The notes beneath the pieces are model-generated. The model searched no databases and was not told the origin of the DNA. It saw only the letters and a program-made list of their open reading frames with translations. The translations under genes and the position numbers were made by a program. From Pyrinomonadaceae bacterium (GTDB lineage Bacteria > Acidobacteriota > Blastocatellia > Pyrinomonadales > Pyrinomonadaceae), in contig JBKKAL010000297.1 of NCBI GenBank assembly GCA_046714695.1, positions 43,407 through 107,406 of the forward strand: a stretch of DNA of 64,000 nucleotides. Direction: 5' to 3'. How positions within the stretch are numbered: the stretch's first letter is position 1; each line of letters begins with the position of its first letter. Shown in pieces: positions 5,893 through 46,037 of this stretch.

Positions 5893-6049
5893 TTTTGAAT
5901 AGATAACGTTATGCTGCCATCATAGACCGGAAGTCATTCTGAGACGAACCTGCGTTAGAGCATAATTATAAACGGCTGAAAAAGATAAAGCTCTTGAAGG
6001 CCGGATGATGATGGTCTGAAGACTACGAACGCGCATGCGCCGGTGAATA

Positions 6050-6655
6050 ATGTTAAGCGTCAAAGGAAGGCCAAACTTGAGCCCGGAAATTTATAAACCA
6101 TCAAAGGAAGAGATTCTCGCCGCTCAGGGTAAAACCGTGCCGGACGTGATCGCGCCGCGGTTGCGCGTGCTCTTTTGTGGCATCAACCCCGGATTGTATT
6201 CGGGAGCCACAGGTTATCACTTCGCCCGACCCGGCAATCGTTTCTGGCCCGCTTTATATGCCGGCGGATTTACGGACAGATTGCTCTCTCCTTTCGAGGA
6301 ATATGAGCTGCTCACAAAAAAGTATGGCGTCACCAATGTGGTCGAGCGCGCGACCGCCACTGCAGCGGAACTCTCCGCTCAAGAAATCATCGAAGGCGGT
6401 CGAAGGCTGGAAGCAAAGGTGCGCCGTATGCGCCCCAGATTTCTGGCGGTGCTTGGCGTCGGCGCTTACCGGACTGCGTTTGGCAGACCAAAGGCCGGCC
6501 TCTGTCTTCAGCCGGAGACCATCGGGGAAACATCCATCTGGGTACTGCCGAATCCGAGCGGCCTGAACGCGCACTACCAACCTAAGGATTTAGCACGGCT
6601 GTTTAGCGAATTTCGTCTCGCGGTGGAGAAAGCAACCGTGCGGCCTCGCGCCTGA
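6050..6655 (+). CDS. mug: G/U mismatch-specific DNA glycosylase
   Basis: VLFCGINPGLYS, YHFARPGNRFW and LPNPSGLN are the Mug/TDG (UDG family 2) motifs. Confidence 0.85.
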   Translation: MLSVKGRPNLSPEIYKPSKEEILAAQGKTVPDVIAPRLRVLFCGINPGLYSGATGYHFARPGNRFWPALYAGGFTDRLLSPFEEYELLTKKYGVTNVVERATATAAELSAQEIIEGGRRLEAKVRRMRPRFLAVLGVGAYRTAFGRPKAGLCLQPETIGETSIWVLPNPSGLNAHYQPKDLARLFSEFRLAVEKATVRPRA

Positions 6656-27189: not shown

Positions 27190-27405
27190 GTGCTTTTGAG
27201 CAACTTAAATTTTAAAACCGAATCCCCTTCCAAGGCGTGGTGTTATATATGCGATTCGGAGATGAATATGATCAGCGCCGAAGAGGCTGCCTTGCTATGC
27301 GGCGTGCGCACACGCACCATCTACCGCTGGGGGGAAACAGGGATGATTCACCTGCTGACACAAATGGGATTGGTCAATGTATGTCTTAATTCTCTAGTTA
27401 TTTAA
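27190..27405 (+). CDS. small Cys-containing HTH (excisionase/MerR-like) DNA-binding protein, start uncertain
   Basis: CYIC...ISAEEAALLCGVRTRTIYRWGETGMIH...VCLNSL resembles small CxxC-HTH_17-type proteins. It lies in the AT-rich region upstream of the giant gene. Confidence 0.5.
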   Translation: MLLSNLNFKTESPSKAWCYICDSEMNMISAEEAALLCGVRTRTIYRWGETGMIHLLTQMGLVNVCLNSLVI

Positions 27406-27752
27406 TCATCGAAAACAGCGATCAGACCTATTACCCGGCATTAATTTTAACGAGATTAGTATGAAAAGCTTGCTATTGGTCGTTTGATCTGCTAGAAGCC
27501 CTGTTCTAACTAGGCCCGCGCTCTTTTTCAACTCGGCTTTATTTCCGTTAATGGCTAAGTTTGAACCCAAACGACTAACTTCTTAATCTGCGCCCCTGAT
27601 GAAATATTTCGCCTCAAAACTCCATATAAATTGAGCGAGAAGCATTCAGGAACATTGGCCTACGACTTAATTCCTCGAAGCTTTCAATTATCCCCTAACC
27701 TGTGGTTTGGACTACAGCATTGGCCCCAAATAGTTCAAGGAGAGAGTTCCCC

Positions 27753-30700
27753 GTGCCTCGCATCTTTTATTCAAAGCGCCGCTTCCCCCTTCTGATCTCT
27801 TTGTCGCTCATCGCCATCGCGTTGGGGAGCTGGATGGCGACGCGTCCTGCGTCTGCCACCGGCGTGAGCTTTACTTCGCCGACAACTGCTTCGATGGGAG
27901 CGAGCCCCATTTCCATCGTCGTGCAGGATTTCAACAGGGACGGAATCCAGGATGTCGCCGTCGCGAACAGGAGCACGGTCAACGGCATCGGGGCCATCTC
28001 TGTTCGTCTGGGCAACGGGTCGGGTGGTTTAGGAGCTGAGACGACTTTTAACAGCGCCGACGGAGCGTACGCGCTGGCATCGGGCGATTTTAATAATGAC
28101 GGCAACCCGGACATAGTTCTCGCCGAAGGCACGAGCAATTTTATTTCGCTCTTTTCAGGCGATGGCCTTGGAGGATTTACCAGAGGCCAACTCACCGCCA
28201 CTTCGCCTGACTTCATCACGACGGGCGATTTCAACCGCGACGGCAACCTTGATATCGTCTACTCGCCGACCAGCGGTAATTTCGTCGAAGTCCTTTTAGG
28301 AGATGGTTCGGGCGGCTTCTCGTTTCCCGGCCCACTTGCTGTAGCCTTCACCCCTGCCTCTATTGTCGTGGCTGATTTCAATCGCGACGGAAATCCAGAC
28401 CTGGCGACAGCAAGTACAGGTGCCAGCTATTCCATCCTGTTAGGTGATGGAGCGGGCGGCTTTGGTGCGGCGACAAACATCCCTTCAGGGGCCGCTCACC
28501 TTTCTCTCGCTGTCGGCGACTTTAATCGCGACGGCAATTCAGACTTTGTGACGGCGAATTATCAAGCAGACAGCGTGTCGTTTTTTGCAGGTGATGGAAC
28601 GGGTGGCTTCAGCTCCGGGGTTGGCTTCCCCGTAGGAACTACGCCTCAATTCGTTATCGTGGGCGATTTCAATAATGATGGCAAGTCGGACGTGGCCTCG
28701 GCTAATGGCGGCCCCGACAATGTCTCGATTCTACTGGGAACAGGCCTCGGCGGGGGCTCAGCCTTCTCAGCAGCGATGGACTTCAGTGCCGGGACGAATA
28801 GTGATCCTCGCGCCATCGCTGCGGGCGACTTCGATAGAAACGGCAAAGTTGATCTGGCAACAGCGAACTATGGTACGAACAACGTCTCTGTCCTGCTCAA
28901 CGACACTGCTCTCTGCACGCCGGGCTTCAACGATGCCGTCAACTACTCAGTCGGCGCAAATCCTTATGCGACGACTGTCGGCGACTTCAACGGCGACGGT
29001 AGTCCCGATCTGGCCACCGCAAATGACGGCGATGACAACGTGAGCGTGCAGCTCGGCGATGGCGATGGGACGTTCCAGACGGCTGTTAATTACAACGTTG
29101 GCGCCAATCCGGGCTTCATCGTCACGGGGGATTTCAACCGCGACGGAAAACTTGATCTCGCCGTGTCGAATTATCAAGACGCCAATATCAGCGTGCTCAT
29201 TGGCAATGGCAATGGCACATTCCAAACTGCCGTTAACTACTCGGTCGGCAACGGCCCTTACTCAATCTCCGTCGGCGATTTCGATCACGATGGCAAGCCG
29301 GATTTGGCCGTAGCAAATAATCAAAACAACAATGTAGGTGTGCTCATTGGCAATGGCAATGGCACATTCCAAACTGCTGTTAACTACTCGGTCGGCACTA
29401 GCCCCTTCTCAATTGCCAGCGCTGACCTCAACGGCGACGGCAAGCTTGACTTAGTCACGCCGAACTATAACAGCCACAACGTCAGCGTACTGATCGGCAA
29501 TGGCGATGGCACATTTCAAACTGCTGTTAACTATAACGCCGACACCAATCCTAGTTCTGTCGCCATTGGAGATTTCGATCGTGATGGTGATGCCGACCTG
29601 GCGGTATTGAACTTCATCAGTAATAACGTGAGCATGCTGCTCGGCAACGGCAACGGCACGTTTCAAACCGCCGTTAACACCAGCACCGGCGGTCAATTCT
29701 CGCTATCAGTCGTCGCCGGAGACTTTAATGGCGATGGCAAGCTTGATTTAGCTATGGCCGACACAGGAAACCCCAATGCCGGCAACTTAAGCGTGCTTCT
29801 GGGTCAGGGCAACGGCAGTTTTCAATCTCCGGCCAACTACAGTGCCAACGTCGGCTCTCAATCGGTCACGGTCGGGGACTTGAACCGCGACGGCAAACTC
29901 GACCTCATCACAACGAACAACACCAGCGGCAATGTCAGCGTGCTGCTCAACAAATGCCCCGCGCCTGATCTGGCTATCACGAAAACACACACGGGCGACT
30001 TTACGGTTGGGCAAACGGCAACCTACAGCATCAAGGTGGAAAACGTCGGCAACCTGACGAGCAGCGGCACTATCTACGTCATGGATCCGCCCCCTCCCGG
30101 GCTCACTTATAATTCGTCATCAGGCACAAACTGGTCTTGCAGCCAGAACGTCCAGGTCTACTGCGCCTACACGGGCACGCTCGCGCCGAGCGCTTCTACG
30201 ACGCTCACCATCAACTTCGATGTTGACAGCAACGCCGTCCCCACAGTCACCAACACGGCCTTGATGACGAACACGAGTGACATTAATTCCGACAATGACA
30301 CGGCCACTGACGAAGCCAACGTCACAGGAGCGACTACCTACACCGTCGTCAACACCAACGACAGCGGGGCCGGCTCACTGCGTCAGGCGATTCTTGACGC
30401 CAACGCCAACGCAGGCTTGGACATTATCGCCTTCAATATCCCCGGCTCTGGCGTCCGGACTATCAGCCCGACTTCGCCACTAACGGATATTGTTGATCCC
30501 GTCATCATCAACGGCTACACGCAGCCCGGCTCAAGCCCGAACACGCTCGCTACAGGCAATGATGCCGTTATCCTGATCGAGATCAACGGCGCAAACGCGG
30601 GTTCAGGATCAGGCATCTCCGGTCTGACGATCACGGCTGGTGGCACGACCGTGCGCGGCCTCGCCATTAATCGCTTCGGCGGGCAGAACATCAAGATAGA

Positions 30701-33700
30701 TGGAGCGGGCGACAACAATGTTATTAAGGGATGCTTTATTGGCACCGACCCGACGGGCACGACTGGTATGGGTAACTCTGTTAATGGCATCTTCGTTAAC
30801 GGCAGCGCGGGCGCGTCGCACAACCAGATCGGCGGCCCCGCGGAAGCCGATCGCAACCTAATCTCCGGCAACAACAACTACGCTATCTTACTTGAGAGCA
30901 GTACCAACAACACGGTGCAGAACAATTATATCGGCACTGACAAGAACGGCACCGGGCCGCTCCCCAACTTGACCAGCGGCATCCGCTTTTACGCTAACGC
31001 TCATGATAACCAGATCGGCGGCCTCTCGTCCGCCGAGGGGAACTTGATCGCCTTCAACGGCAGTTCCGGTATACAGGCCACCGATGCAGGTAACCCGAGT
31101 CTACGTAACCGCTTCCTCGGCAACTCGATTCACTCCAACTACACAATCGGGATTGAGCTCAACGGCAACGGCTTCGACACGAACGACGCGGGCGACGCCG
31201 ATGGAGGCGCAAACAGCACTCAGAATTATCCGGTCCTCACCTCCGTCTCGACTTCGAGCGGCTCGACTAACGTCGCCGGCACGCTCAACTCAACTTCTAA
31301 TACATCTTTTCGCGTCGAGTTCTTTTCCAACCCGGGCTCTAACCCTTCGACACGACGTCAGGGAAAGACCTTCCTCGGCTTCGTCAACGTCACGACGGAT
31401 CCCTCGGGCAACGCCTCTGTCAACACGAGCTTTAACCCGCCCGTCTCTACCACCCTCGGCATTACCGCGACGGCGACGAGAGATCCCGGCGACGCTGACC
31501 CGAACGCCACCTCCGAGTTCTCAAACTACGTACAGGAATTGGTCGCTCCACAGACCTTCACGGTCAACTCCGCAGCCGACACGCCAGACGCCAACCAGGG
31601 GGACTACATCTGCGACGTAGACCTCGGCACTCCCGGCTCTCAATGTACGCTGCGCGCTGCAATCCAGGAGGCGAACGTCAATCCGAGCGCCGACACCATC
31701 ACCTTCTCTATAGGTACAGGCGCGCAGACTATCAGCTTCACCGACGGCGTGCCGACGATCGCTTTCCCCGTCACGATTGACGGCTACACGCAGCCGGGTG
31801 CGTCAGTGAACACACTCCCAACGGGCAACAACGCCGTGCTCCTGATTGAACTCGACGGCACTAATGCTAATAGTAATGCGATAGAAATCTTTGCCAGTAA
31901 CTGCACCGTCAAAGGGCTCATCATCAATCGCTTCCTAGCAAAAGGGATTTTGTTGCAGAACGGCGACGGTAACATCATCCAGGGCAACTTCATCGGCACG
32001 AACGCTGCGGGCACCGCCAAACTCGCCAACAACGGCGGTATAAGCATCAATAATTCATCGAATAACATTATCGGCGGAACGGCGCCTGCTGCTCGCAACC
32101 TCATCTCGGGCAACAACGGGCCTGGCATTGATTGCTTCGCCTGTAGCGGTCTCGTCGCTCAGGGCAATTACATCGGTACGAATGCTGCCGGCACAGCCGC
32201 CGTCGCTAATACCGGGGCCGGCTTATACTTGGAAGGATCGCAAAACGTTGTTGTCGGCGGAACGTCGCCGGGCGCGCGCAACGTCATCTCCGGCAATGGC
32301 GACGCCGGCTTCGACATTGAGTACATGTCCTCGGGCGCGCAAGCGGCCGTCACCATTCAGGGAAATTACATCGGCACCGCGGCAGATGGCATCTCAAATC
32401 TGGGCAATGGCTATGAGGGCATCCTCCTGTACGAAAGCAGTGACTGCATCGTCGGCGGGACGACTCCTGGCGCAGGCAATATTATCGCCTTTAGCGCTGG
32501 TGCCGGCGTGACTGTTGATAGCGAGCCTGCCCTCAACAACTCCATCCGGGGAAACAGCATTCATTCAAACGCTGAGCTGGGCATAGAGCTTCATCAATCG
32601 GGCGGTGTCACGCAGAACGATACAGGCGACACCGACAGCGGCGAGAACAATTTCCAGAACTTCCCCGTTCTGACATCGGCCACATCGAACGGCACGAGCA
32701 CTACCGTCAACGGCACGCTCAACTCTATCCAGAGCCTCAACTACGCCGTCGAGTTCTTTTCGAGTCCGACCTGCGACCCGTCGGGCAATGGCGAGGGGCA
32801 GACCTTCCTCGGCTCGACCAACGCTGCAACTGACGCTAATGGCGACGCGACGTTCAACGCGACCCTGCCTATTGGAGTGACTGCAGGACATTTCGTGACG
32901 GCGACGGCAACCGATTCTTCGGGCAACACCTCGGAGTTCTCGCAGTGCATGCAGGTAACTGCTGCCCCGGCACCTACTTCGTTAATCATCAGCGAGTTTC
33001 GTCTGCACGGAGGCTTGGGCACTGGCGACGAGTTTGTCGAGCTTTTCAACAACAGCGATACAGCCATCACCGTCAGTACGACGGACGGCTCCACCGGCTG
33101 GTCTATTGTAGATAATAGCGGCTATGCGATCTTGAGCATCCCCAACGGCACGGTCATTCCGGCGCGCGGCCACTATCTAGGCGTCTTTTATTACAGCACC
33201 GGGAGCAGCGTCAGCACTTATGCTACGCCGGACGCAAACTGGGGCTACTCCGACGGCCATCAAATCGGCGATGGCGGCGGCGTTGCCATCTTCAGCACGG
33301 GTAACGTCGCAAACTTCACCAACGCTTACCGCCTCGATGCCGTCGGCTTCGGCGGCGCGAATGCTCTTTATCGTGAAGGTGCGGGGCTCGCGCCTGCCAA
33401 TGGCATTACCGTTGATGGCGAGTACAGTTTCGTCCGCAAGATGACGGGCTACGATTCGCAGGATACCGATAACAATGCTAGCGACTTTGTCTTCGTCTCC
33501 ACGACGGGCGCGGCGTTTAGCGGCGAACAATCAATCCTCGGAGCGCCGGGGCCTGAGAATTCTGGCAGCCCGCGCCGGGGAATTATTCCGGGCAACACAG
33601 GGCTTAGCGTCGCGCTACTGGACACGAGCGCTGCGGCCACGGCGTCGCCCAACTTTGTGCGCGACTTTAATCCGGTGCGCAACGGCTCACAGGGTACGAT

Positions 33701-36700
33701 GGAGATTCGCCGAACGATTACCAATAACACCGGCGTGACCCTGACACGGCTTCGCTTCCGCGTCACAGACATCACAACCCTCGGCTCGATCACGACCAAC
33801 GGAGCGGACGTTCGCGTCTTGACCTCCGCCGATGCCACTGTGAGCACAGGCTCAGGCACGGTCGCCGTCAAGGGCACGACGCTTGAGCAGCCGCCGAATC
33901 AGTTCAGTAACGGCGGCGGTTTGAACTCATCGCTGAACGTCGCACTGCCAGGCAATGCCCTTGCTAACGGCGCGAGCATCAACGTCAGTTTCCTGCTGGG
34001 CGTCAGCCAGACGGGCACGTACAGATTCGAGGTTGATGCCGGACTCAGTAATCCACAGGAGCTTATCAGCGCAGGCACTCCTGCGCCATCCATCTACGGG
34101 CGCGTCAGTAATACCAGCAACGGGCCCGCCACAGCCTTTAGCAATGTGACTGTGACTTTGAGCGGCGACGCTTCTGTCACCACCACGACAGACGCCAACG
34201 GCAACTATTCATTTAACAACCTGACGGCCAGTGGCAACTACACTGTCACGCCATCTAAGATCGGATACCTCTTTACTCCGCCCAGCCAGAACATCAGCGG
34301 CCTGAGCGGTAATCAGGCGGCGGACTTTGCCGGAGCGTTGCCGATCCCGCAATCCGGCAACATCCTGATCTCGGAGTTTCGTTTCCGTGGCGCGACGGGC
34401 CAGGGCGATGAGTATGTCGAAATCTATAACAACACGGACGCGCCCTTCATCGTCAGCACAGAAGATGGCTCAACAGGATGGTCAGTCGTTGACAGCAATG
34501 GTTATGCGCTCATCACGATTCCCAACGGCACTGTGATTCCGGCGCGCGGCCATTACCTTGGCAAGTTCTTTTACAACGGGTCAAACCTTAACTCTTATGC
34601 ACCGGCGGACGTGACATGGGGATACCACGACGGCTATCAAATTGGAGACGATGGCGGCGTCGCCATCTTCAAGACTTCGAACGCGGCGAACTTCACGGTT
34701 GCCAATCGGCTCGATGCCGCCGGTTTTAATAATCAGACCGCGCCCGTGCCTGTGCTCTACCGCGAAGGCACGGGTCTCGATCCCATTGGGCCCAGCGATG
34801 GCGAGTACGCTTTCGTTCGCCGGATGACGAGCGGGCTGCCGCAGGACACGGACAATAACGCCGCCGATTTTATCTTCGTCGCGACCACGGGCGGAGCATT
34901 CAACGATATTCTGTCGCTACTCGGAGCGCCGGGGCCTGAAGGAATGCTGAGCCCCCTCTTCAACGCTACGCTTTCGGAATCGTTGATTGACGCGACGACG
35001 GCTGAGTCTGCAACGCCCAACCGCGTGCGCGATACGACGCCCAGCGGGCCTGCTCCTTTTGGCACGCTGACGGTTCGTCGCAAGTACACGAACAATACCG
35101 GCTCGACCATCACACGGTTGCGACTGCGCGCAGTTGATCTCTCGACCCTCAACAATCGAACCAACACCGAGGCAGACCTGCGCCTCACGTCCTCTACGGA
35201 CGCAACGGTGACCACAGGCGCAGAAGGCACGGTCGCCGTCAAGGGCACGACGCTCGAACAGCCGCCTACTCAAGCGGGCGGCGGCGGGATCAACTCAAGC
35301 CTCAGCGTGGCATTGCCGGGCGGATCTCTGGCCGTCGGCCAGAGCGTCAATGTTCAGTTTGTGATGAACGTCCAACAGGACGGAACGTACCGCTACAAAT
35401 TTGTGCCGGAAGTGAATGTGCCGCAGACGCCGCGCATCACAGGCCGCGTCGCAGATGCCAGCAACAACGGCGTCTCCGGTGTAACGATAACATTGGGCGG
35501 CGCGACATCATCCTCCACGACGACGGATGTTAACGGAGATTACGCATTCAATAACCTGACGGCCAGTGGCAACTACACTGTGGCCCCGTCCCTTTCCGGC
35601 TACACGTTTACTCCCGCGAGCCAGACAATCAGCAATCTGAGAGGAACACAGACCGCAAACTTTACGGCCACAGCTTCAACCTATACGATTTCAGGTCAGG
35701 TCAACGACGCGAACAATAACCCGCAAAGCGGTGTCACACTCACTTTGAGCGGTTCGCAATCGGCAACCTTCCCCACCAGCGCTACGGGTAACTATTCATT
35801 TACCAATCTCACAGCGGGCGGCAACTACACCGTTACGCCGTCGAAGACAGGCTATAATTTCACGCCCGCAAACCAGACCTTTAATAATCTGTCGGCCAAC
35901 CAGACGGCCAACTTTATCTTGTCCCCTGCCACGACGCTGACCGTCACAAACACGAACGACAGCGGCGCGGGCTCGCTCAGACAGGCGATTACGGATGCAA
36001 ATGCTTTTTCCGGTTTCCAGACAATCACCTTTAACATCTCCGGTACGGGAGTCCAGACCATTACGCTCGCCTCGCAGTTACCTGGTATTACAGACACTGC
36101 GAGCATTGATGCTACGACCCAGCCCGGATACGCGGGTACGCCATTGATCGAGCTGAACGGTAATAACGCGGTGGGCAATGCGCTTGTTATTACCGCTGGC
36201 AATAGTCTTGTGCGCGGTCTGGTCATCAACCGCTTCACAGGCAATGCCCTGCTCGTGCAATCGGCTGGTAATTTTATTCAGGGCAACTACATCGGCACGA
36301 ACGCCGCTGGTATTGCCGCCTCGGCCAACGGCGGGAGCGGTATCGTCATCACCCGCGGGACCAATACCATTGGAGCAACGACGGCCGGTGGTACGGGCAA
36401 CCTGATCTCCGGCAATAGTAACTTCGGCATCTTTATCAATCAGGTCAACGTTAACAGCCCGGCGGGCGGCAACGTAATTTCCGGCAACTATATCGGGACG
36501 AACGCAGCGGGTACTGCTGCCATCCCCAACCGCAACAACGCTATTGATATTGCCGGCGCGTCGAATACGATCATCGGCGGCGCCACCGCCGGGGCGCGTA
36601 ATGTGATCTCCGGTAACGGCCTTCCGAATCAAACGCTCGGTCGCGGCATTCGAATCCGCATCAATGGCGTCCGAGATAGTCTGCCGAGCGGAACAATTAT

Positions 36701-39700: not shown

Positions 39701-42700
39701 CCTGGGTGCGGGCGTCGCTATCTTCCTCGGCGCGCACGACAACAGGGTCGAGGGTAATCGCATCGGTACGAACGCCGCCGGCACCGTTGCGCTCGGCAAT
39801 CAGGCCCAGGGCGTTCTCATCACAGACACCGGGTCAAACAACAACACCATCGGTGGCACGGCCACTGGCGCGGGCAACACCATCGCCTTCAACGGAGGGC
39901 ATGGCGTCGTGCTCAATGGGCCAACGACGGGCAACGCCGTCCTGACGAACTCTATACACTCCAACGCAGGGCGCGGCATACAGCTCAACGCCAATGCGAA
40001 TGGCGTCATTGCTAATAACAACCAGGCTGCGCCCAGACTGTTTTTCGTCGGCGTATCGAACGGGACGGCAAATTATGGCGGGACGTTGACCAGCACTCCG
40101 AATACGAATTTCACAATACAGCTTTTCTCTAATAGCAGTTGCGATCCGTCCGGCTTTGGCGAAGGACAGAACCTTGTCGGCCCAATCAGTGCGACGACAG
40201 ACGCGCAGGGGCGCGCCACATTCTCCGCGAACTACCCCGCGACCATTGGGCAGTTTATTACGGCGACGGCCACCAGCGCGGGAAACAATACCTCAACCTT
40301 CTCGCAGTGCGTACAGGCGGCTGCTTATCAAGTCGGCACATTCCAGTTCGTCAACAACGGTGTTTACGGAGTGAGCGAGGGTGTCGGTAATGCTCTCATC
40401 ACGGTCAGCCGCACGGGCGACAACTCGACCACAGCGACCGTGAATTACGCGACCGTTAGCGGCGGGACGGCCGTCGCCGGTACTGATTACACGGCGGCCT
40501 CGGGTGCGATCACTTTCGCTCCCGGCGAGAACTTTAAGACCTTCGTCATTCCCCTGACGAACGATACGACCGTTGAGAACGTCGAGACCGTCAACATGAC
40601 GATCAGCAATCCGTCGAACGGCTCTGTGCTCGGCTCGCCCACGACGGCCACGCTCTCGATTGTGGACAACGATCCTGCGCCGCAGGCGGGCAACAACGGC
40701 AAGATCGCTTTCCACAGCAATCAGACGGGCAACAACGACATTTACGTGATGAACGCCGACGGCACAAATCCTGTCAACATCACTAATAATCCCGGCGATG
40801 ATGGTCAGCCCAACTGGTCGCCAGACGGCACCAGGATCGCCTTCAACGCTTTCCGCACGGGCAACAGCAATTACGAGATCTATGTTATCAACGCCGACGG
40901 GACGGGCCTCGTGCAGTTGACCAATAACACAGGCGGCGCGAGTTTCACGCCCGACTGGTCGCCAGACGGCACCAGGATCGTCTTCGATTCGGACCGCACC
41001 GGCAACAACGAAATATATGTGATGAACGCCGACGGCACGAATCAGACAAACCTCTCCAACAATCCAGCAACTGACGGTAACGCCGTCTGGTCGCCCGACG
41101 GCACTCGCATCCTTTTCACTACGGACAGGGCAAACAGCACGCTGGGCTCTAACGGCTACGATCTTTACTTGATGAACGCCGACGGCACAAATCTTGTACG
41201 CCTGACGAATAACACGTTCTATGACGACTGGGCCGTGTGGTCGCCCGACGGCTCTAAGATCGCTTTCCAGACTACGCGCGACGGCAACAGCGAAATCTAT
41301 GTGATGAACGCCGACGGCACGAATCAGATCAACCTCACCAATAATATCGCCACCGATAATGTGCCCGCGTGGTCCTCGGACGGCACGCGCATCGCTTTCC
41401 AGACTACTCGCGACGGCAACGGCGAAATCTATGTGATGAACGCCGACGGCAGTAATCTTCAGCGACTGACGAACACACAGGCGAATGATATCTACCCGGA
41501 CTGGCAGCCTGTCGCTCAACCGGCTCCGCCCGCTCCGACTTATACCATCTCAGGCAAGGTTGCAGATGCCGGTAATAATGGCATTCAGAATGTGACGCTG
41601 ACATTGAGCGGCCCGCAGCCGTCATCTACTCCGCAGACCACGACGACTGACGCGAGCGGCAACTATTCGTTCAGCAATCAGACGGCAGGCGGCAACTACA
41701 CTGTCACGCCCTCGCTCTCCGGTTATAACTTCAATCCGTCAAATCATGTCTTCAATAATCTGAGCGGCAATCAGACCGCTAACTTCACGGCCACACCTTC
41801 CACTTACGCGATTTCCGGGCAGGTCAGCGACGCGAACAATAACCCGCAGAGCAATGTGACGATCTCCTTAAGCGGCTCTCAATCGGCGACCACAACGACC
41901 AATGCGACGGGTGATTATTCCTTCGCCAATCTCGCGGCTGGCGGCAACTACGTCGTGACCCCGTCGCAGACCGGCTATAGCTTTACGCCTGCGAACCAGA
42001 CATTCAATAACCTGTCGGCCAACCAGACGGCCAACTTTACGAGCACGGCGCTGGTTTACACTATCAGCGGTGCGGTGACCGATGGCACGAATCCGCTGAG
42101 CGGTGTGTCGGTCGCATTAAGCGGCTCGCAGACCGGGACGGCGACCACCAATTCGAGCGGCACTTACTCGTTCTCAAATCTGGCGTTTGGCGGCAACTAC
42201 ACCATCACGCCCTCGCTCTCCGGTTATGGCTTTACGCCTCAGACCTTCAACAGTCTGACCGCCAACCAGACGGCCAATTTTGTCGGCACTTCGCTCAACA
42301 CTGTCGCCACTCCCGCGGGGACAAACGTTACCGTCCAGGTCGGCTCGACCATAATCACCTTCTCGCAGGTGACGGCGGCTGGAACTACCACCGTCGCTCC
42401 GATCAACCCCTCATCGGCCGGGACTTTGCCCGCCGGATTCGGTATTAACGGCGCGAGCACAGCTTTCGACATCACGACGACGGCTATCTACACGGGCCCC
42501 GTCACAATCACCTTCAGCATGCCTTTGGTGACTGATCCTGTAGCGTTCGCTGATTTAAGAGTGCTGCATGGCGAAGGCGGCGCGCTCGTTGATCGTACGA
42601 TTCTTTCGCCCGATGCGCCTGCACCCAACTTTGCGAGCAAGACCGTCTCGGCACGAGTGACGACGTTGAGCCCGTTTGTAACGGCCACGAACAACGCGCG

Positions 42701-45700
42701 CTCGATTAGCGGCCAGGTGACGGTGAGCGGCAACCCGCTTGTCAATGCGACGGTTCAGTTGACGGGCTCGGCATCAGGGATCACAACGACGGACGGCTTA
42801 GGTAATTATTCATTCAACGGACTGTCACAGGGCGGCAACTACGCGGTGACGCCGTCGAAGACCAACTACACGTTTGCCCCCGCGAGCCTCGTCTTTAATA
42901 ATCTGACTACCAATCAGACAGGGAACTTCGCGGGCACTCTGGTCAACTTCCAGATCAGCGGTCATGTGGCGGACACGAGCGGAGCGCCGCTCAGCGACGT
43001 GGCCATCACCCTTTCCGGCGCACGCACGCTAACCGTCTTTACAGACGCTTCTGGCAACTACCTGTTGACGAACGTGCCGGCCAGCAGTGACTACACAGTG
43101 ACCCCGACCAAAACGGGCGTCATTTTCGCGCCCGCGAGCCTCGTCTTCAACAACCTGGCTGCCAACCAGACGGGCAACTTCACGGGCACTGTGGAGATGA
43201 CGCCGACACCGCCGCCGCCGCCGCCCAGCGAGGACTTCGACACCGATGGCCCACCCAACCCGGAAGTCTTTAATACGGGTACGCTGACACAGAACTCGAC
43301 CGCCGTGGATCCGCAGGTGACCGTCGTGCAGGAGAACGGCCAGCTTGAGATTACGCCGCGGAGCAACGTTGAAGGCGAGTCATTTAACGGAGTCGTGACG
43401 ATTAAGCCCCTTGACCTGACCGTCACGCCGACCGTCAGCGTCGAGGCAGTACAGACGACCACGGGCGATGGCTCTCTGACAGTCTTCGCCATCGGCTCCG
43501 ATAGCGAAAACAACTACAGCTTCATCGTCACACCCGGACAGACGCTGCCGACGGCAGATGCATCGAAGGGGCGTGCGGCAGCGAGGGTCAGTGGCACAGC
43601 GGCGGATTCACTGACGCTCTTTTTCCAGGTCATCATCGGTGGCGAGAAGTTCTCGACCGGAATTCTTTATGATCCGGTTGAGCACCGCTTCTGGCGCTTC
43701 CGGCTGGATACCCCGGCGCAGACCATCAACTTCGAGACGAGTTCGGATAAACAGGCATGGAAGCTGCGATACAAGGCATCAATCCTTAAATCGCCGACGG
43801 CGCTCGTGAGCGAACTCTCGGCCGGTACGACCAGGGCGACAATCAATCCGGGCAAGGCTGTCTTCGATAACTACGAAGTCGGCGGGGCAAACACTTTCCG
43901 TTTCAGCACCTCGAATTATATGGTGACGGAGACGGGCGGCAGTATTCAAATCACAGTTCTGCGCACGGGTTCAACCGAGAGTTCGGCGGTCGTTAATTAC
44001 GCGACGAGCGGCGGTAATGCCACACCCGCCTCGGACTTCACGGCGGCGAGCGGCACGATCAGGTTTGCTGTCGGAGAAAGCAGCAAGAGCTTCACGATCA
44101 ACGTCAGCGACGATAGCGCGGTTGAACCAGACGAGATAGTCATCCTCTCTTTAAGCAATCCAGTTGGCGGTCTGCTCGGCGCTCCCAGTGCGGCGACCCT
44201 AGCGATTGTGGATGACGATACGAGAAAGAATCCGATTGATGCCGCGCAGTTTTACTTCAACCAGGTGTACCTGGACTTCTTCAAGCGCGAGCCCGAAGCT
44301 GCTGAGCTACAGGCATATCTGAGCAGGATCGCGGTCTGCGGCGGCAACGCTCAATGCATCGAGACGGAGCAAGGAAATATCGTCAGAGAGCTGCTGCTCT
44401 CCGAAGAGTTTCAAGAGACGGGATATCTTCTTTCTCGCTTTTATCAGGAAGCCCTGAATCGTGCGCCGAGCCTCCAGGAGTTTCTCTCCGACATGGATCA
44501 ACTCCATCAAGGGGCCGCGACCAAAGCCCTCTGGCAACAGAGGTCTGCGGCAAACACAGAGGACTTTGTCGAGCAGTTCATCGCACGTCCGGCCTTCAAG
44601 CAGATATATGATTCGCTTGACAGCATGGGCTATGTGGACAAACTGCTCGCCAACGCCGGAATCACACTGAGCCCGGAAGACCGCTCATCGCTCGTCATCG
44701 GCCTGCTGACAAACAAAGAGACGCGTGCGTCCGTCTTCTTAAAGATCGCTCTTAACGAGGAGTTCAAGAACAAAGCCTTCGACCGCACATCCGTTATCAT
44801 GCTCTACCTCGGCTTGCTGCGGCGCGCTCCATCGGCTTCGGAAATCAGCGACGGACTGAACATCCTGAAGAGCGCGAGCGGCATTCGCGCGCTCGTCTCG
44901 AAGATCATTCGCACCTCTGAATATCGCCTTCGATTCGGCGCGGCGAGCACAGTGCAATTCAGCCGCGAAACCTATCAGGTGGCTGAGAATGAACGCGAGG
45001 TGACGGTGACGGTGACGCGTGTCGGAGCGACAGACAAAGCTGAGACGGTGCAATACCTGACGCGCGATACCGCGGAGCTACAGAATTGCGACATCCTGAA
45101 CGGCATCGCCTCTTCCCGTTGCGACTACATCACTGGGGTTGGCACGCTCCGCTTCGGCCCGGGCGAAACGTCGCAGACATTTTCGATCCCCGTCGTTGAC
45201 GACGTTTATGTCGAGGGCTCTGAGTTTTTCACTATAACCTTGAACGCCACACAGAGCAGCACAAGCCTGGGCACGCCCAATACTGCTAACGTGACGATCA
45301 CGGACAATCCGGGCGAAGTGGCGGGCGTCGTCAATCCGATTGATCGAACCGATTTCTTCGTCACACAACAGTACATGGACTTTCTGGGACGCTTGCCTGA
45401 GCCGCACGGCTTCAACGCCTGGTCAGCTCAGATCAACAACTGCGCGGCAGGTCAGGCCAGTTGTGACCGTCTCTCGGTATCGCAGGGCATTTATCTCTCT
45501 CCCGAATTTAGAGATCGTGGATACTTCATCTACAAACTCTATTCGGCGGCGTTCGGTAGAAAGCCCACCTACAGCGAGTTCGTGCCTGACCGCGCGCGTG
45601 TCAGCGGCTTCCAATCGGACGTGGAGCTGGAGCAATCGAAGGTGGACTTCATCGCTGATCTTATGGCGAGGGCAGAGTTCACCGCTGTTTACAACGGGCT

Positions 45701-46037
45701 CTCTAATGATGCCTATGTGCAGCAGTTGTTTAAGACGACAGGAGTCTCGCAGGTAACAGTCAATGGAGTGGTGTTGAGCCTGGCGGCGATGCAGCAGTCT
45801 ATGACTTCCGGCAAGACAAGAGCGCAGGTCTTGAGAGAGGTCACGGAGAGTCCGGAGGTCAGCAGCCGATACCTGACGGAGGCGACCATCGTGATGCACT
45901 ACTTCGGGTATCTCAGACGTGACCCGGATGCCGCGTATCAGGAGTGGATCAAGATATACAACCAGACAGGGGATTCGCGGAACGTGACGAACGGGTTTGT
46001 GAATTCTTCTGAATATAGGATGAGATTTGGAAAGTAA
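27753..46037 (+). CDS. giant secreted mosaic surface protein (about 6100 aa)
   Basis: The ORF is uninterrupted from 27702. GTG at 27753 is the preferred start, because AAGGAGAG lies 7 nt upstream and the product begins VPRIFYSKRRFPLLISLSLIAIALGSWMATRPASA (signal peptide). The domains seen, in order, with approximate coordinates:
- 14 FG-GAP blades: 27861-29957
- DUF11-like: 29958-30330
- beta-helix modules, each starting (G/C)(S/T)LR(Q/A)AI: 30333, 31557, 35931 and 38841
- lamin-tail-like modules: 32982 and 34362
- more than 15 Cna-B/CarboxypepD_reg-like domains
- TolB-like propellers: 37700-38560 and 40690-41510
- Calx-beta: 40325, 43890 and 44945
- P6 linker: 43209
- LamG-like region: 43230-43880
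- DUF4214-like regions: 44230-44935 and 45330-46034. Confidence 0.9.
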   Translation: MPRIFYSKRRFPLLISLSLIAIALGSWMATRPASATGVSFTSPTTASMGASPISIVVQDFNRDGIQDVAVANRSTVNGIGAISVRLGNGSGGLGAETTFNSADGAYALASGDFNNDGNPDIVLAEGTSNFISLFSGDGLGGFTRGQLTATSPDFITTGDFNRDGNLDIVYSPTSGNFVEVLLGDGSGGFSFPGPLAVAFTPASIVVADFNRDGNPDLATASTGASYSILLGDGAGGFGAATNIPSGAAHLSLAVGDFNRDGNSDFVTANYQADSVSFFAGDGTGGFSSGVGFPVGTTPQFVIVGDFNNDGKSDVASANGGPDNVSILLGTGLGGGSAFSAAMDFSAGTNSDPRAIAAGDFDRNGKVDLATANYGTNNVSVLLNDTALCTPGFNDAVNYSVGANPYATTVGDFNGDGSPDLATANDGDDNVSVQLGDGDGTFQTAVNYNVGANPGFIVTGDFNRDGKLDLAVSNYQDANISVLIGNGNGTFQTAVNYSVGNGPYSISVGDFDHDGKPDLAVANNQNNNVGVLIGNGNGTFQTAVNYSVGTSPFSIASADLNGDGKLDLVTPNYNSHNVSVLIGNGDGTFQTAVNYNADTNPSSVAIGDFDRDGDADLAVLNFISNNVSMLLGNGNGTFQTAVNTSTGGQFSLSVVAGDFNGDGKLDLAMADTGNPNAGNLSVLLGQGNGSFQSPANYSANVGSQSVTVGDLNRDGKLDLITTNNTSGNVSVLLNKCPAPDLAITKTHTGDFTVGQTATYSIKVENVGNLTSSGTIYVMDPPPPGLTYNSSSGTNWSCSQNVQVYCAYTGTLAPSASTTLTINFDVDSNAVPTVTNTALMTNTSDINSDNDTATDEANVTGATTYTVVNTNDSGAGSLRQAILDANANAGLDIIAFNIPGSGVRTISPTSPLTDIVDPVIINGYTQPGSSPNTLATGNDAVILIEINGANAGSGSGISGLTITAGGTTVRGLAINRFGGQNIKIDGAGDNNVIKGCFIGTDPTGTTGMGNSVNGIFVNGSAGASHNQIGGPAEADRNLISGNNNYAILLESSTNNTVQNNYIGTDKNGTGPLPNLTSGIRFYANAHDNQIGGLSSAEGNLIAFNGSSGIQATDAGNPSLRNRFLGNSIHSNYTIGIELNGNGFDTNDAGDADGGANSTQNYPVLTSVSTSSGSTNVAGTLNSTSNTSFRVEFFSNPGSNPSTRRQGKTFLGFVNVTTDPSGNASVNTSFNPPVSTTLGITATATRDPGDADPNATSEFSNYVQELVAPQTFTVNSAADTPDANQGDYICDVDLGTPGSQCTLRAAIQEANVNPSADTITFSIGTGAQTISFTDGVPTIAFPVTIDGYTQPGASVNTLPTGNNAVLLIELDGTNANSNAIEIFASNCTVKGLIINRFLAKGILLQNGDGNIIQGNFIGTNAAGTAKLANNGGISINNSSNNIIGGTAPAARNLISGNNGPGIDCFACSGLVAQGNYIGTNAAGTAAVANTGAGLYLEGSQNVVVGGTSPGARNVISGNGDAGFDIEYMSSGAQAAVTIQGNYIGTAADGISNLGNGYEGILLYESSDCIVGGTTPGAGNIIAFSAGAGVTVDSEPALNNSIRGNSIHSNAELGIELHQSGGVTQNDTGDTDSGENNFQNFPVLTSATSNGTSTTVNGTLNSIQSLNYAVEFFSSPTCDPSGNGEGQTFLGSTNAATDANGDATFNATLPIGVTAGHFVTATATDSSGNTSEFSQCMQVTAAPAPTSLIISEFRLHGGLGTGDEFVELFNNSDTAITVSTTDGSTGWSIVDNSGYAILSIPNGTVIPARGHYLGVFYYSTGSSVSTYATPDANWGYSDGHQIGDGGGVAIFSTGNVANFTNAYRLDAVGFGGANALYREGAGLAPANGITVDGEYSFVRKMTGYDSQDTDNNASDFVFVSTTGAAFSGEQSILGAPGPENSGSPRRGIIPGNTGLSVALLDTSAAATASPNFVRDFNPVRNGSQGTMEIRRTITNNTGVTLTRLRFRVTDITTLGSITTNGADVRVLTSADATVSTGSGTVAVKGTTLEQPPNQFSNGGGLNSSLNVALPGNALANGASINVSFLLGVSQTGTYRFEVDAGLSNPQELISAGTPAPSIYGRVSNTSNGPATAFSNVTVTLSGDASVTTTTDANGNYSFNNLTASGNYTVTPSKIGYLFTPPSQNISGLSGNQAADFAGALPIPQSGNILISEFRFRGATGQGDEYVEIYNNTDAPFIVSTEDGSTGWSVVDSNGYALITIPNGTVIPARGHYLGKFFYNGSNLNSYAPADVTWGYHDGYQIGDDGGVAIFKTSNAANFTVANRLDAAGFNNQTAPVPVLYREGTGLDPIGPSDGEYAFVRRMTSGLPQDTDNNAADFIFVATTGGAFNDILSLLGAPGPEGMLSPLFNATLSESLIDATTAESATPNRVRDTTPSGPAPFGTLTVRRKYTNNTGSTITRLRLRAVDLSTLNNRTNTEADLRLTSSTDATVTTGAEGTVAVKGTTLEQPPTQAGGGGINSSLSVALPGGSLAVGQSVNVQFVMNVQQDGTYRYKFVPEVNVPQTPRITGRVADASNNGVSGVTITLGGATSSSTTTDVNGDYAFNNLTASGNYTVAPSLSGYTFTPASQTISNLRGTQTANFTATASTYTISGQVNDANNNPQSGVTLTLSGSQSATFPTSATGNYSFTNLTAGGNYTVTPSKTGYNFTPANQTFNNLSANQTANFILSPATTLTVTNTNDSGAGSLRQAITDANAFSGFQTITFNISGTGVQTITLASQLPGITDTASIDATTQPGYAGTPLIELNGNNAVGNALVITAGNSLVRGLVINRFTGNALLVQSAGNFIQGNYIGTNAAGIAASANGGSGIVITRGTNTIGATTAGGTGNLISGNSNFGIFINQVNVNSPAGGNVISGNYIGTNAAGTAAIPNRNNAIDIAGASNTIIGGATAGARNVISGNGLPNQTLGRGIRIRINGVRDSLPSGTIIKGNYIGTNAAGTAAIPNTWHGFSITDAPGTVIGGAGAGEGNLISGNTGLGIFIDFADNCVIQGNRIGTNAAATSGIPNVAGGVQYSARNAAFGGTAPGAGNVIAFNTGDGIRIFGSANSGNAILSNSIHSNANLGINLQSGANNGQSAPVITSARTDESTSMIQGTLRSTPNSTFNIQLFSNAACDPSGFGEGQNYLGSTTATTDSTGNATFSTSGLYSIAGQFITATATDASNNSSRFSRCSLGNASTLISGRVANAAGAGISNVTVTLSGARTDSITTDANGDYSFGVASGTYTVTASKINTTFAPPSHTFTTSGPTQTANFTATTTSGPGGKIVFARDLGQNNTLTTSALASRREILVMNADGSNQTFLTNTTIDNFDPVWSPDGTKIAFCSVPGQNSGNFNNEIWVMNADGTNQVRLTNNSANSTDDDDPAWSPDGTKIVFESNRDGGGFQLYVMNADGTGQTRLTNNTARDFTPSFSPDGTKIVFVSDRDGNNEIYSMNANGTGQTKLTNNSSGDDQPVFSPDGTKIAFSSDRDGNTEVYVMDANGSNQVRLTNNPNTDGAPSWSPDGTQIAFHTDRAPQQDSEIYVMKADGTSQTNITNFPNNDDYTPNWQSQAALPARTYSIGGQVTDAGNNSSQNVTLTLSGPQPSSTPQTTNTNANGNYSFTNLTAGGNYTVTPSKQGYSFTPANQTFNNLSANQTANFTGVLISTLTVTNTNDSGAGSLRQAILDSNSLSGTQTIAFNIPGTGVRTITLASVLPNITGPVIIDGTTQPGFTGTPLIELNGNGLQASGLNLFGGNSTVRGLVINRFNFVGIFIQSNGNTIQGNYLGTNAAGTSSLGNGSHGVHINGGLNNIIGGAIAAERNVISGNLQNGVYLSNNASNNIVMGNYIGTNAAGTGAVANGNIGVHLTNATNNTVGGTIAEARNIISGNTRNAIGFDAVGSTGNLLQGNYIGTNAAGTAAIPNGLPVAISNGASNNTIGGTSAGAGNVISGNLGAGVAIFLGAHDNRVEGNRIGTNAAGTVALGNQAQGVLITDTGSNNNTIGGTATGAGNTIAFNGGHGVVLNGPTTGNAVLTNSIHSNAGRGIQLNANANGVIANNNQAAPRLFFVGVSNGTANYGGTLTSTPNTNFTIQLFSNSSCDPSGFGEGQNLVGPISATTDAQGRATFSANYPATIGQFITATATSAGNNTSTFSQCVQAAAYQVGTFQFVNNGVYGVSEGVGNALITVSRTGDNSTTATVNYATVSGGTAVAGTDYTAASGAITFAPGENFKTFVIPLTNDTTVENVETVNMTISNPSNGSVLGSPTTATLSIVDNDPAPQAGNNGKIAFHSNQTGNNDIYVMNADGTNPVNITNNPGDDGQPNWSPDGTRIAFNAFRTGNSNYEIYVINADGTGLVQLTNNTGGASFTPDWSPDGTRIVFDSDRTGNNEIYVMNADGTNQTNLSNNPATDGNAVWSPDGTRILFTTDRANSTLGSNGYDLYLMNADGTNLVRLTNNTFYDDWAVWSPDGSKIAFQTTRDGNSEIYVMNADGTNQINLTNNIATDNVPAWSSDGTRIAFQTTRDGNGEIYVMNADGSNLQRLTNTQANDIYPDWQPVAQPAPPAPTYTISGKVADAGNNGIQNVTLTLSGPQPSSTPQTTTTDASGNYSFSNQTAGGNYTVTPSLSGYNFNPSNHVFNNLSGNQTANFTATPSTYAISGQVSDANNNPQSNVTISLSGSQSATTTTNATGDYSFANLAAGGNYVVTPSQTGYSFTPANQTFNNLSANQTANFTSTALVYTISGAVTDGTNPLSGVSVALSGSQTGTATTNSSGTYSFSNLAFGGNYTITPSLSGYGFTPQTFNSLTANQTANFVGTSLNTVATPAGTNVTVQVGSTIITFSQVTAAGTTTVAPINPSSAGTLPAGFGINGASTAFDITTTAIYTGPVTITFSMPLVTDPVAFADLRVLHGEGGALVDRTILSPDAPAPNFASKTVSARVTTLSPFVTATNNARSISGQVTVSGNPLVNATVQLTGSASGITTTDGLGNYSFNGLSQGGNYAVTPSKTNYTFAPASLVFNNLTTNQTGNFAGTLVNFQISGHVADTSGAPLSDVAITLSGARTLTVFTDASGNYLLTNVPASSDYTVTPTKTGVIFAPASLVFNNLAANQTGNFTGTVEMTPTPPPPPPSEDFDTDGPPNPEVFNTGTLTQNSTAVDPQVTVVQENGQLEITPRSNVEGESFNGVVTIKPLDLTVTPTVSVEAVQTTTGDGSLTVFAIGSDSENNYSFIVTPGQTLPTADASKGRAAARVSGTAADSLTLFFQVIIGGEKFSTGILYDPVEHRFWRFRLDTPAQTINFETSSDKQAWKLRYKASILKSPTALVSELSAGTTRATINPGKAVFDNYEVGGANTFRFSTSNYMVTETGGSIQITVLRTGSTESSAVVNYATSGGNATPASDFTAASGTIRFAVGESSKSFTINVSDDSAVEPDEIVILSLSNPVGGLLGAPSAATLAIVDDDTRKNPIDAAQFYFNQVYLDFFKREPEAAELQAYLSRIAVCGGNAQCIETEQGNIVRELLLSEEFQETGYLLSRFYQEALNRAPSLQEFLSDMDQLHQGAATKALWQQRSAANTEDFVEQFIARPAFKQIYDSLDSMGYVDKLLANAGITLSPEDRSSLVIGLLTNKETRASVFLKIALNEEFKNKAFDRTSVIMLYLGLLRRAPSASEISDGLNILKSASGIRALVSKIIRTSEYRLRFGAASTVQFSRETYQVAENEREVTVTVTRVGATDKAETVQYLTRDTAELQNCDILNGIASSRCDYITGVGTLRFGPGETSQTFSIPVVDDVYVEGSEFFTITLNATQSSTSLGTPNTANVTITDNPGEVAGVVNPIDRTDFFVTQQYMDFLGRLPEPHGFNAWSAQINNCAAGQASCDRLSVSQGIYLSPEFRDRGYFIYKLYSAAFGRKPTYSEFVPDRARVSGFQSDVELEQSKVDFIADLMARAEFTAVYNGLSNDAYVQQLFKTTGVSQVTVNGVVLSLAAMQQSMTSGKTRAQVLREVTESPEVSSRYLTEATIVMHYFGYLRRDPDAAYQEWIKIYNQTGDSRNVTNGFVNSSEYRMRFGK
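27861..29957 (+). repeat. 14 tandem FG-GAP/VCBS repeats (two predicted 7-bladed integrin-alpha-like propellers) inside the giant CDS
   Basis: I counted 14 copies of the Ca-binding-type motif (G)DFN(R/N/G)DG(N/K)xDL/V, each followed by N..SVLLG(D/N)G.G.F. Confidence 0.8.
32982..35678 (+). repeat. two tandem ~460-aa modules (lamin-tail-like domain + beta-sandwich + Cna-B-like domain) inside the giant CDS
   Basis: LIISEFRLHGGLGTGDEFVELFNNSDTAITVS at 32982 and ILISEFRFRGATGQGDEYVEIYNNTDAPFIVS at 34362 give an in-frame offset of 1380 nt. Both continue with IPNGTVIPARGHYLG, LGAPGPE and VAVKGTTLEQPP. Confidence 0.7.
35679..38576 (+). repeat. segmental duplication unit A inside the giant CDS (Cna-B-like, beta-helix, Cna-B-like, TolB-like propeller)
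   Basis: A 43-nt exact match (ACTATTCATTTACCAATCTCACAGCGGGCGGCAACTACACCGT) occurs at 35791 and 38701, an in-frame offset of 2910 nt. The flanking ~200 nt look roughly 85-90% identical by eye. Confidence 0.75.
38577..41537 (+). repeat. segmental duplication unit B inside the giant CDS (Cna-B-like, beta-helix, Calx-beta, TolB-like propeller)
   Basis: It has the same architecture as unit A except for the third domain. Its 5' end (CAGAATGTGACGCTGACcTTGAGCGGCCCGCAGCCGTCATCTACTCC at 38625) recurs at 41586, an offset of 2961 nt, opening a third, truncated unit. Confidence 0.75.

Follow-up and report, generated by a model that had tools for sequence, protein, structure and literature searches.

Introduction

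Acidobacteria are among the most abundant soil bacteria and live largely on polymers, and we know of no account of what retains their exoenzymes and adhesins at the cell surface. The question is raised by a single giant gene of about 18 kb in a Pyrinomonadaceae soil acidobacterium, located within a stretch of 64,000 nucleotides (the window) of NCBI GenBank assembly GCA_046714695.1 (contig JBKKAL010000297.1, positions 43,407 to 107,406 of the forward strand). A sequence-only reading of the window described the product as a secreted mosaic protein and proposed that it was a cell-surface mega-adhesin or a polysaccharide-active scaffold, retained by no known signal. What, then, would hold such a protein on the cell? 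From sequence comparisons, the label "no anchoring signal" is better replaced by a tandem DUF4214-type C-terminal cassette, which is probably a glycan anchor. Nucleotide positions without a contig name are those of the window, amino acid (aa) positions of the giant protein are counted from nucleotide 27702, and its domains were mapped by tiled Pfam and NCBIfam scans together with self-comparison.

A Conserved Cassette at the C-Terminus

The last 721 aa of the giant protein are two tandem cassettes, each composed of a Calx-beta domain and about 227 aa of three DUF4214 repeats. Internal cassette A (43872-44936, forward strand) contains the second of the three Calx-beta domains of the protein (aa 4209-4325, 5391-5505, and 5746-5880) and the first of its two DUF4214-like regions (aa 5508-5746 and 5885-6111), and is matched at 2.3e-83 by profile A2, which represents the DUF4214 part of the cassette. 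Terminal cassette B (44934-46037, forward strand), recognized from Pfam family PF13946 (DUF4214; 67.1 bits in the last 801 aa of the protein, against a cut-off of 23.2), from the C-termini of paralogues and from an AlphaFold2 model, contains the third Calx-beta domain, with a Cys-Cys insert, and the other three repeats. The two cassettes are 29-31% identical over their full length. Cassette B ends in ...YFGYLRRDPD...NSSEYRMRFGK immediately before the stop codon, with no hydrophobic helix at the end, and all copies of the cassette end in ...YFGYLRRDPD...NGFxNSxEYRxRFG(x).

In the same genome, the terminal cassette also forms the very C-terminal end of at least 15 other open reading frames (ORFs, taken from stop to stop), with 43-69% identity, far above the identity of the N-terminal parts of these paralogues. 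Contigs C270 and C277 end within the Calx-beta domain of a cassette, in the same peptide with which contig C26 starts, and are read as two further cassette genes cut by assembly forks; the other exported proteins with this tail number at least 17. Short cassette-like fragments lie at or near the ends of contigs C24, C15, C93, C100, and C154. Some cassettes are nearly identical in DNA and break the assembly (at the start of C26 and the ends of C270 and C277); the true number of copies is therefore above the 17-19 counted. Wherever the N-terminus is complete, the copy starts with a Sec-type leader, and the passengers are unrelated to each other: an M14 carboxypeptidase, S8 subtilases, a metalloprotease-like protein, a GDSL lipase, a pyrroloquinoline quinone (PQQ)-type sugar dehydrogenase (GSDH) with DUF11, SBBP and DUF5122 propellers with cadherin domains, a sortilin/BNR propeller, and a CSLREA beta-helix. 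The cassette has two conserved Cys pairs, one in the Calx-beta insert and the other in the first DUF4214 repeat, which fits an extracytoplasmic location.

AlphaFold2, run on the alignment of the paralogues, folds the cassette as one unit formed by the Calx-beta sandwich and an all-helical part (predicted local distance difference test, pLDDT, 85.9; predicted template modeling score, pTM, 0.80). A fold search with the cassette returned Calx-beta matches only and nothing on the helical part; in sequence, the last DUF4214 repeat is related to the REP domains of phycobilisome linkers (ApcE, PDB 7eyd, E 2e-7). With regard to sorting, the domain search of the last 801 aa at E ≤ 0.01 found only Calx-beta, DUF4214 and, weakly, PBS_linker in Pfam, and caca in NCBIfam. 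No C-terminal domain of the type IX secretion system (T9SS), PEP-CTERM, LPXTG, RTX signal of the type I secretion system (T1SS) or autotransporter barrel was found in the C-terminal region. The sequence-only reading was thus right that no known sorting signal is present. What it passed over is that the DUF4214-like repeats in its own domain list are a conserved and strictly C-terminal module, carried by at least 17 other exported proteins.

Distribution of the Cassette

Scoring of profile A2 against 1.84 billion representative proteins gave 12,016 proteins at E ≤ 1e-3 and 2,563 clusters at E ≤ 1e-30. The match is full-length and ends no more than 5 residues from the C-terminus in 148 of the 150 best representatives, whose lengths range from 239 to 4,079 aa; at the loci of relatives, 66 of 68 ORFs have the motif YFGYLRRDP at 43-48 aa from their end. 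The best 80 genomic loci all belong to Pyrinomonadaceae or to unclassified Acidobacteriota soil metagenome-assembled genomes. In a survey of 151 genomes spread over the phylum, with a threshold of E ≤ 1e-25 for the full cassette, this was limited to the family of the host (0 of 143 other Acidobacteriota). Among the 61 Pyrinomonadaceae genomes (60 genera sampled), the full cassette is present in 37, in 1 to 43 copies, and absent from 24. The cassette thus belongs to one lineage, is strictly C-terminal and has spread over dozens of unrelated exoproteins. In one genome with at least 41 copies, six cassette-ending genes lie on one strand within 23 kb (G137:C18:147730-170392), a cluster that suggests tandem expansion of the family.

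Links Between the Cassette and Glycan Loci

A small protein of about 290-330 aa is present in most cassette-positive genomes, including those with only one or two copies of the cassette. It consists of a signal peptide, about 45 aa and three DUF4214 repeats, without Calx-beta, and may be the founding member of the cassette family. The stretch of about 45 aa is conserved and reads PTLRIV..DP.LP.ELFYGN.KVKPLRLRPGTN. In six of seven loci of relatives, the gene lies within 225 nt of a glycosyltransferase gene. The host copy (294 aa; locus L098, G000:C267, 1928-2809, reverse strand) stands in an operon with the order GT4, GT4-methyltransferase, YfhO-like membrane protein, small protein and GT2, with a convergent GT4 gene. 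In genome G154, which has a single copy, the gene follows that of Wzt, an ABC ATPase with the glycan-cap-binding domain Wzt_C, and that of a cytoplasmic fusion of DUF4214 to a methyltransferase, with Wzm divergent. In genome G149, it is located among genes for GT2, GT4, a methyltransferase and a DUF4214-methyltransferase, beside an S8 protease that also ends in DUF4214 repeats.

The arrangement of Wzm, Wzt and DUF4214-methyltransferase is repeated at the edge of host contig C7. The fusion of DUF4214 repeat and methyltransferase, which lies directly after Wzt (with Wzt_C) and divergent to Wzm, was located at C7:2-3830 and C62:1527-2789 of the host genome (G000), at L101:6896-10981 and at L102:8241-9887. 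By its gene context, the protein looks like an O-polysaccharide chain terminator of the WbdD type. Among the 61 family genomes, an orthologue was detected in 23 cassette-positive genomes and in 0 of 24 cassette-negative ones (one-sided Fisher test, P = 1.6e-7, uncorrected for shared ancestry). In the well-assembled subset, the counts of methyltransferase against cassette are 11/3/0/15 (P = 1e-5, also without correction for shared ancestry). Other links point to the same class of loci. In the host genome, 3 of 18 cassette genes have glycosyltransferases within 8 kb, against 3.5% of other ORFs (P = 0.02); at related locus L017, two tandem cassette genes stand behind a CapD-type polysaccharide gene; and clustering of the neighbors at the 80 related loci left a GT4 glycosyltransferase as the sole recurring gene, with no candidate for a secretion or sorting partner among the conserved neighbors.

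Export of the Giant Protein

The reading frame of the giant gene is unbroken, as had been claimed: frame +1 is open for 6111 codons from 27702 to 46037 (forward strand), and the only stop is at its end. The single ORF of about 6100 aa read there from sequence alone stands, and its start probably moves downstream. The likely start codon is GTG 27753 (codon 18), the first in-frame start with a ribosome-binding site (Shine-Dalgarno-like AAGGAGAG at 27737-27744, 8 nt 5' of the GTG), and the resulting 6,094 aa equal the public gene call P0152 in length. The probable true start and the Sec signal peptide occupy 27753-27857. Read by eye, the N-terminus MPRIFYSKRRFPLLISLSLIAIALGSWMATRPASA/TG has KRR, a hydrophobic core and then ASA/T, that is, an AxA cleavage site without a lipobox; the signal peptide named by the sequence-only reading is present and of the Sec type. 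The mature protein would have about 6,058 aa, about 623 kDa and a pI of 4.4; it is rich in G, T, N, A, and S and has 25 Cys.

For the outer membrane, the host genome has three secretins, on contigs C243, C166, and C137. The first follows four same-strand ORFs of PilM/N/O/P-like sizes, a likeness of sizes only, and the context of the second is possibly Tad-like. The third belongs to an operon resembling a type II secretion system (T2SS; locus L097, G000:C137:38600-49500), with GspF, GspE, a secretin of 963 aa and two N-methyl pseudopilins, so that a T2SS-like route is at hand for the giant protein. This operon is followed by a pair formed by an extracytoplasmic function (ECF) sigma factor and a zf-HC2 anti-sigma factor. 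T2SS dependence has been reported for a CSLREA protein of Acinetobacter (bioRxiv 10.1101/2022.02.01.478765).

Another candidate for translocation was the downstream neighbor of the giant gene (46199-50089), which starts 161 nt 3' of it on the same strand and codes for a 1296-aa outer-membrane barrel with CarboxypepD_reg and OMP_b-brl_4 domains (PF25183, E 5.7e-118), one of 19 such barrels in the genome. As a dedicated translocator it was rejected: it stands beside no other cassette gene of the host genome, its paralogue with 58% identity follows an RNase E/G gene, and L017, the closest related cassette locus, has no such barrel. The barrel is probably outside the cassette system.

Proposed Mechanism and Its Alternatives

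From the glycan-operon context and the co-occurrence with the methyltransferase, we infer that the DUF4214 repeats recognize the polysaccharide that the cell itself exports through Wzm/Wzt, and that the cassette tethers its passengers to it. In the case of the giant protein, export across the inner membrane would be by the Sec pathway, in keeping with the N-terminal signal peptide. Crossing of the outer membrane might then use the T2SS-like GspF-GspE-secretin-pseudopilin operon, which is the default candidate, and the two tandem cassettes would hold the protein on the cell surface in a non-covalent manner. Their ligand would be an O-antigen-like polysaccharide of the cell, made by a Wzm/Wzt ABC-transporter pathway, the chain of which is probably capped by the DUF4214-bearing methyltransferase. 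The giant protein would thereby be displayed as a long multivalent adhesin or matrix scaffold on the glycan coat. The whole chain of Sec export, T2SS-like candidate route and retention by cassettes bound to the cell's own O-polysaccharide has about an even chance of being correct. A wider proposal is tentative: the unit of Calx-beta and triple DUF4214 might serve as the address tag in a display system of diderm Acidobacteria that has yet to be described, in which dozens of exoenzymes and giant adhesins are carried on a methyl-capped O-polysaccharide exported by Wzm/Wzt, and DUF4214 would recognize glycan ends both inside the cell (in the chain-terminating methyltransferase) and outside it (in the displayed proteins).

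Proteins with comparable tails have been described in other bacteria. In segmented filamentous bacteria, DUF4214 tails have been proposed as surface anchors (PMC3371716) and described as "likely surface-anchoring domains" (PMC12780176). The "Cluster.1/3" proteins of these bacteria (PMC3371716) also join dissimilar N-terminal parts to a conserved, helical C-terminal DUF4214 that resembles phycobilisome linkers, and there, as here, the anchoring role is proposed and not demonstrated. Segmented filamentous bacteria are monoderm Clostridia, whereas the host of the giant protein is a diderm acidobacterium, and only the tail of the latter is a fixed unit of Calx-beta and triple DUF4214, with two Cys pairs, in tandem and linked to a Wzm/Wzt-type locus. 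Another example is Psh of Pseudomonas putida KT2440, an RTX-DUF4214 protein active at the surface, whose gene is part of an O-antigen capping locus (bioRxiv 10.64898/2026.09.02.748959). Like the giant protein, Psh is a surface-acting secreted protein with DUF4214 at the C-terminus; its gene lies in or next to the O-antigen capping/biosynthesis locus, and it is proposed to sit on the O-antigen. However, Psh is small, carries RTX repeats, lacks a Sec signal and is exported by a T1SS, while the giant protein has a Sec signal, no HemolysinCabind match, and as neighbors a regulator and the outer-membrane barrel, with no T1SS. A similar logic is found in the binding of SLH domains to pyruvylated cell-wall polymer and in the anchoring of the RsaA S-layer to O-antigen, where a terminal module ties varied exported proteins non-covalently to a surface glycan made by a locus; their folds and sequences are unrelated to those of the cassette, for which this logic is only inferred. 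The cassette and its Wzm/Wzt glycan-locus link extend the earlier proposal of DUF4214 as a surface anchor.

Several points weigh against glycan anchoring and the export route proposed with it. No methyltransferase orthologue was detected in 14 cassette-positive genomes, and the giant gene itself lies outside any glycan locus. The cassette-positive genera may form one clade, and the co-occurrence test is uncorrected for phylogeny. Among solved structures, those closest to DUF4214 are the phycobilisome linkers, whose ligands are proteins and not glycans, and the O-antigen binding of Psh comes from gene context and in silico docking only (bioRxiv 10.64898/2026.09.02.748959). Finally, it is unproven that a T2SS secretin can let a 623-kDa protein through, and the signal peptide was recognized by eye.

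The kinship with phycobilisome linkers leads to a different explanation, namely that the cassette is a protein-protein docking or self-assembly module (an S-layer-like lattice or a scaffold; compare phycobilisome linkers and dockerins) with no glycan ligand. The homology of the last repeat to the linker REP domain agrees with it, as do the packing of Calx-beta and helical part into one unit in the model and the multimers suggested in the Psh preprint. Nevertheless, in the neighborhoods examined there is no candidate partner protein that co-occurs with the cassette, and the recurring link is to glycosyltransferase, Wzm/Wzt, and methyltransferase genes, all of which makes docking an unlikely account of the tail.

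A secretion signal read by an outer-membrane translocon, like the T9SS C-terminal domain, would also produce a tag that is strictly C-terminal, borne by many unrelated Sec-dependent exoenzymes, restricted to a lineage and present in large copy numbers; such a signal might perhaps be removed, releasing free exoproteins. Against this, the cassette is far larger than known tags (about 370 aa in two folded domains), it has no conserved translocon gene in its neighborhood (the downstream barrel shows no link with the other cassette genes), and a secretion signal leaves without explanation both the cytoplasmic DUF4214-methyltransferase and the protein made only of signal peptide and DUF4214 in glycan operons. 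This explanation appears quite improbable.

More doubtful still is that the giant protein and its paralogues stay in the periplasm or at the inner face of the outer membrane, where the cassette would meet the envelope or the growing polysaccharide, perhaps as part of glycan processing. The Sec signal with no known outer-membrane sorting signal is compatible with such a location, and TolB-like PD40 propellers are typical of the periplasm. Yet the passengers of the paralogues are of typically extracellular types (S8, M14, lipase, cadherin, FG-GAP), and a 623-kDa fiber of about 40 domains is a poor fit for the periplasm. Retention at the surface by the cassettes, on the cell's own O-polysaccharide, is the preferred reading.

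Domain Organization and Proposed Role of the Giant Protein

The domain order given by the sequence-only reading was borne out almost exactly by the Pfam and NCBIfam scans and the self-comparison. All features of the gene are on the forward strand. About 14 FG-GAP/VCBS repeats with a period of about 49 aa form two seven-bladed propellers (27864-29951, aa 55-750; PF13517, E 4.7e-112, 13 stretches in tile 1) and are followed by a DUF11 Ig-like domain (29949-30329, aa 750-876; PF01345, E 1.3e-15, 58 bits against a cut-off of 24.6). Beta-helix modules 1 and 2 (30324-32972, aa 875-1300 and 1305-1757) each have a GSLRQAI/CTLRAAI head, a parallel beta-helix and a C-terminal beta-sandwich. They were identified from an alignment, from matches to PF13229 and TIGR03804, and from the CSLREA model TIGR04214, which the head of module 2 (aa 1286-1325) matches with 40.1 bits against a cut-off of 25; the remaining three beta-helix heads of the protein, all GSLRQAI, can be aligned to it. 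Two lamin-tail (LTD) modules of about 355 aa each come next, with one CarboxypepD_reg domain between them (32970-35411, aa 1757-2110 and 2212-2570). They are 50-65% identical to each other and reach 48.1 bits for PF00932 as a pair, against a cut-off of 34.3, and about 30 bits each, under the cut-off, when taken singly.

The center of the protein is encoded by two related segments of about 2.9 kb (35424-41501), seen as DNA repeats at 2910-nt spacing and in the Pfam matches. The first contains two CarboxypepD_reg domains, beta-helix 3 (aa 2743-3240), a further CarboxypepD_reg domain and PD40/TolB propeller 1 (aa 3330-3615); the second contains CarboxypepD_reg, beta-helix 4 (aa 3715-4205), Calx-beta 1, and PD40/TolB propeller 2 (aa 4330-4600). 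Five CarboxypepD_reg spacers (41538-43199; PF13620) then surround a 128-aa domain (42297-42680, aa 4866-4993) that has no Pfam match even at E ≤ 10; in total, ten spacers of the CarboxypepD_reg/SdrD_B type are spread over aa 2110-5166. A proline hinge (aa ~5170) and a region of about 210 aa without a family (43209-43880) precede the cassettes. This region had been called LamG-like, a label that finds no support: aa 5170-5393 match no Pfam family, LamG included, at E ≤ 10. Sequence searches of the PDB with the LTD module and with aa 4866-5390 gave nothing useful, and no catalytic family was matched anywhere along the protein in the Pfam and NCBIfam scans.

The sequence-only reading allowed that the beta-helix modules could be catalytic (lyase- or glycosidase-like). 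The AlphaFold2 model of beta-helix 3 (pLDDT 85.6, pTM 0.87) is a right-handed parallel beta-helix with a C-terminal sandwich. The only solved homologue of these modules is PDB 8wm1 (query 35928-37421; profile E 3.1e-18, Foldseek E 2.6e-15), which shares with them the tail ...TA.ITD..G.TSE.S and is a "3-dehydroshikimate dehydratase" in the label of the depositors only. Such an activity would be unexpected in a secreted beta-helix, and a literature search found no publication on this structure. Foldseek matches to tailspikes, lyases, and epimerases (E 1e-5 to 1e-3, TM 0.2-0.4) are at the level of the fold only, and Pfam returned only generic Beta_helix/NosD matches and no catalytic family. All four modules have the GSLRxAI head, the regular helix and the ...TATATD..GNTSEFS sandwich of CSLREA proteins (TIGR04214; 8wm1); the known members, however, are single-module proteins of 450-500 aa, whereas the giant protein embeds four modules in one chain. 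The rest of the chain is made of binding and spacer modules, and a multivalent adhesin or matrix scaffold is therefore the most economical reading. Of the roles first proposed, that of a Sec-exported surface adhesin or scaffold, non-enzymatic in look, is the best reading of the passenger; the beta-helices themselves may or may not be catalytic.

Upstream, the gene is preceded by an AT-rich leader of about 700 nt, in which no Rfam family and no consensus promoter were found; promoter/terminator and Rfam scans at both ends of the gene gave nothing. A small HTH-like ORF (MNMISAEEAALLCGVRTRTIYRWGETGMIHLL...) lies within it at 27268-27400 (forward strand), and the leader is flanked by a divergent regulator with a winged helix-turn-helix (Trans_reg_C) and a PD40 propeller (25082-27034, reverse strand).

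Origin of the Giant Gene

The two segments of about 2.9 kb are an in-frame segmental duplication with 76-87% DNA identity, from which it can be deduced that the giant gene grew by in-frame duplication and domain swapping. The copies differ by one swapped domain, which is CarboxypepD_reg in the first and Calx-beta in the second.

The draft genome is in 304 contigs (96.7% complete), and the internal DNA repeats of the gene are 60-87% identical. With blastn, the gene has no non-self match above 83% identity in the whole genome, which leaves nothing for an assembler to collapse or misjoin and makes mis-assembly unlikely. An artefact of assembly, or a decaying pseudogene built from repeats, is hard to credit as the origin of the ORF, even in a draft where several other large or cassette genes are broken at contig ends, since 18.3 kb are open in one frame with significant domain matches along nearly all of it, the repeats are too divergent for collapse or wrong joins, the gene sits mid-way in a 145-kb contig, and giants of similar size (3.4-7.7 k aa) occur in other Pyrinomonadaceae.

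These other giants are also its best matches. The protein forms a singleton cluster, no orthologue was found, and the best local alignments cover 17-19% of the query. Giants of Pyrinomonadaceae and other soil bacteria (e.g., P0153, 7,685 aa, annotated "FG-GAP-like repeat-containing protein") are of the same size class and share its set of modules (FG-GAP, CarboxypepD_reg, Calx-beta, PD40, beta-helix, and a DUF4214 end), although none is orthologous. In the same-genus genome G160, there are 18 cassette genes, the largest of which (4,022 aa) has only the tail in common with the giant protein. The same genome has two homologues of the downstream barrel and no giant gene beside either; one comes after an RNase E/G-sized ORF, as with the barrel paralogue of the host genome, and the other is close to an M1-like peptidase and two ordinary cassette genes. 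The giant protein is thus a species-specific, one-off mosaic and, at the same time, an ordinary member of a class of giant mosaic surface proteins.

Significance

For annotation, proteins of this kind are better called "DUF4214-tailed" than signal-less. DUF4214 is, to our knowledge, a widespread domain with no demonstrated role, and the link between cassette and glycan provides a lead to its function. For the biology of the phylum, one family-specific tail, found on up to 43 proteins per genome and tied genetically to an O-polysaccharide export and capping locus, offers a hypothesis of surface display that can be tested at the bench.

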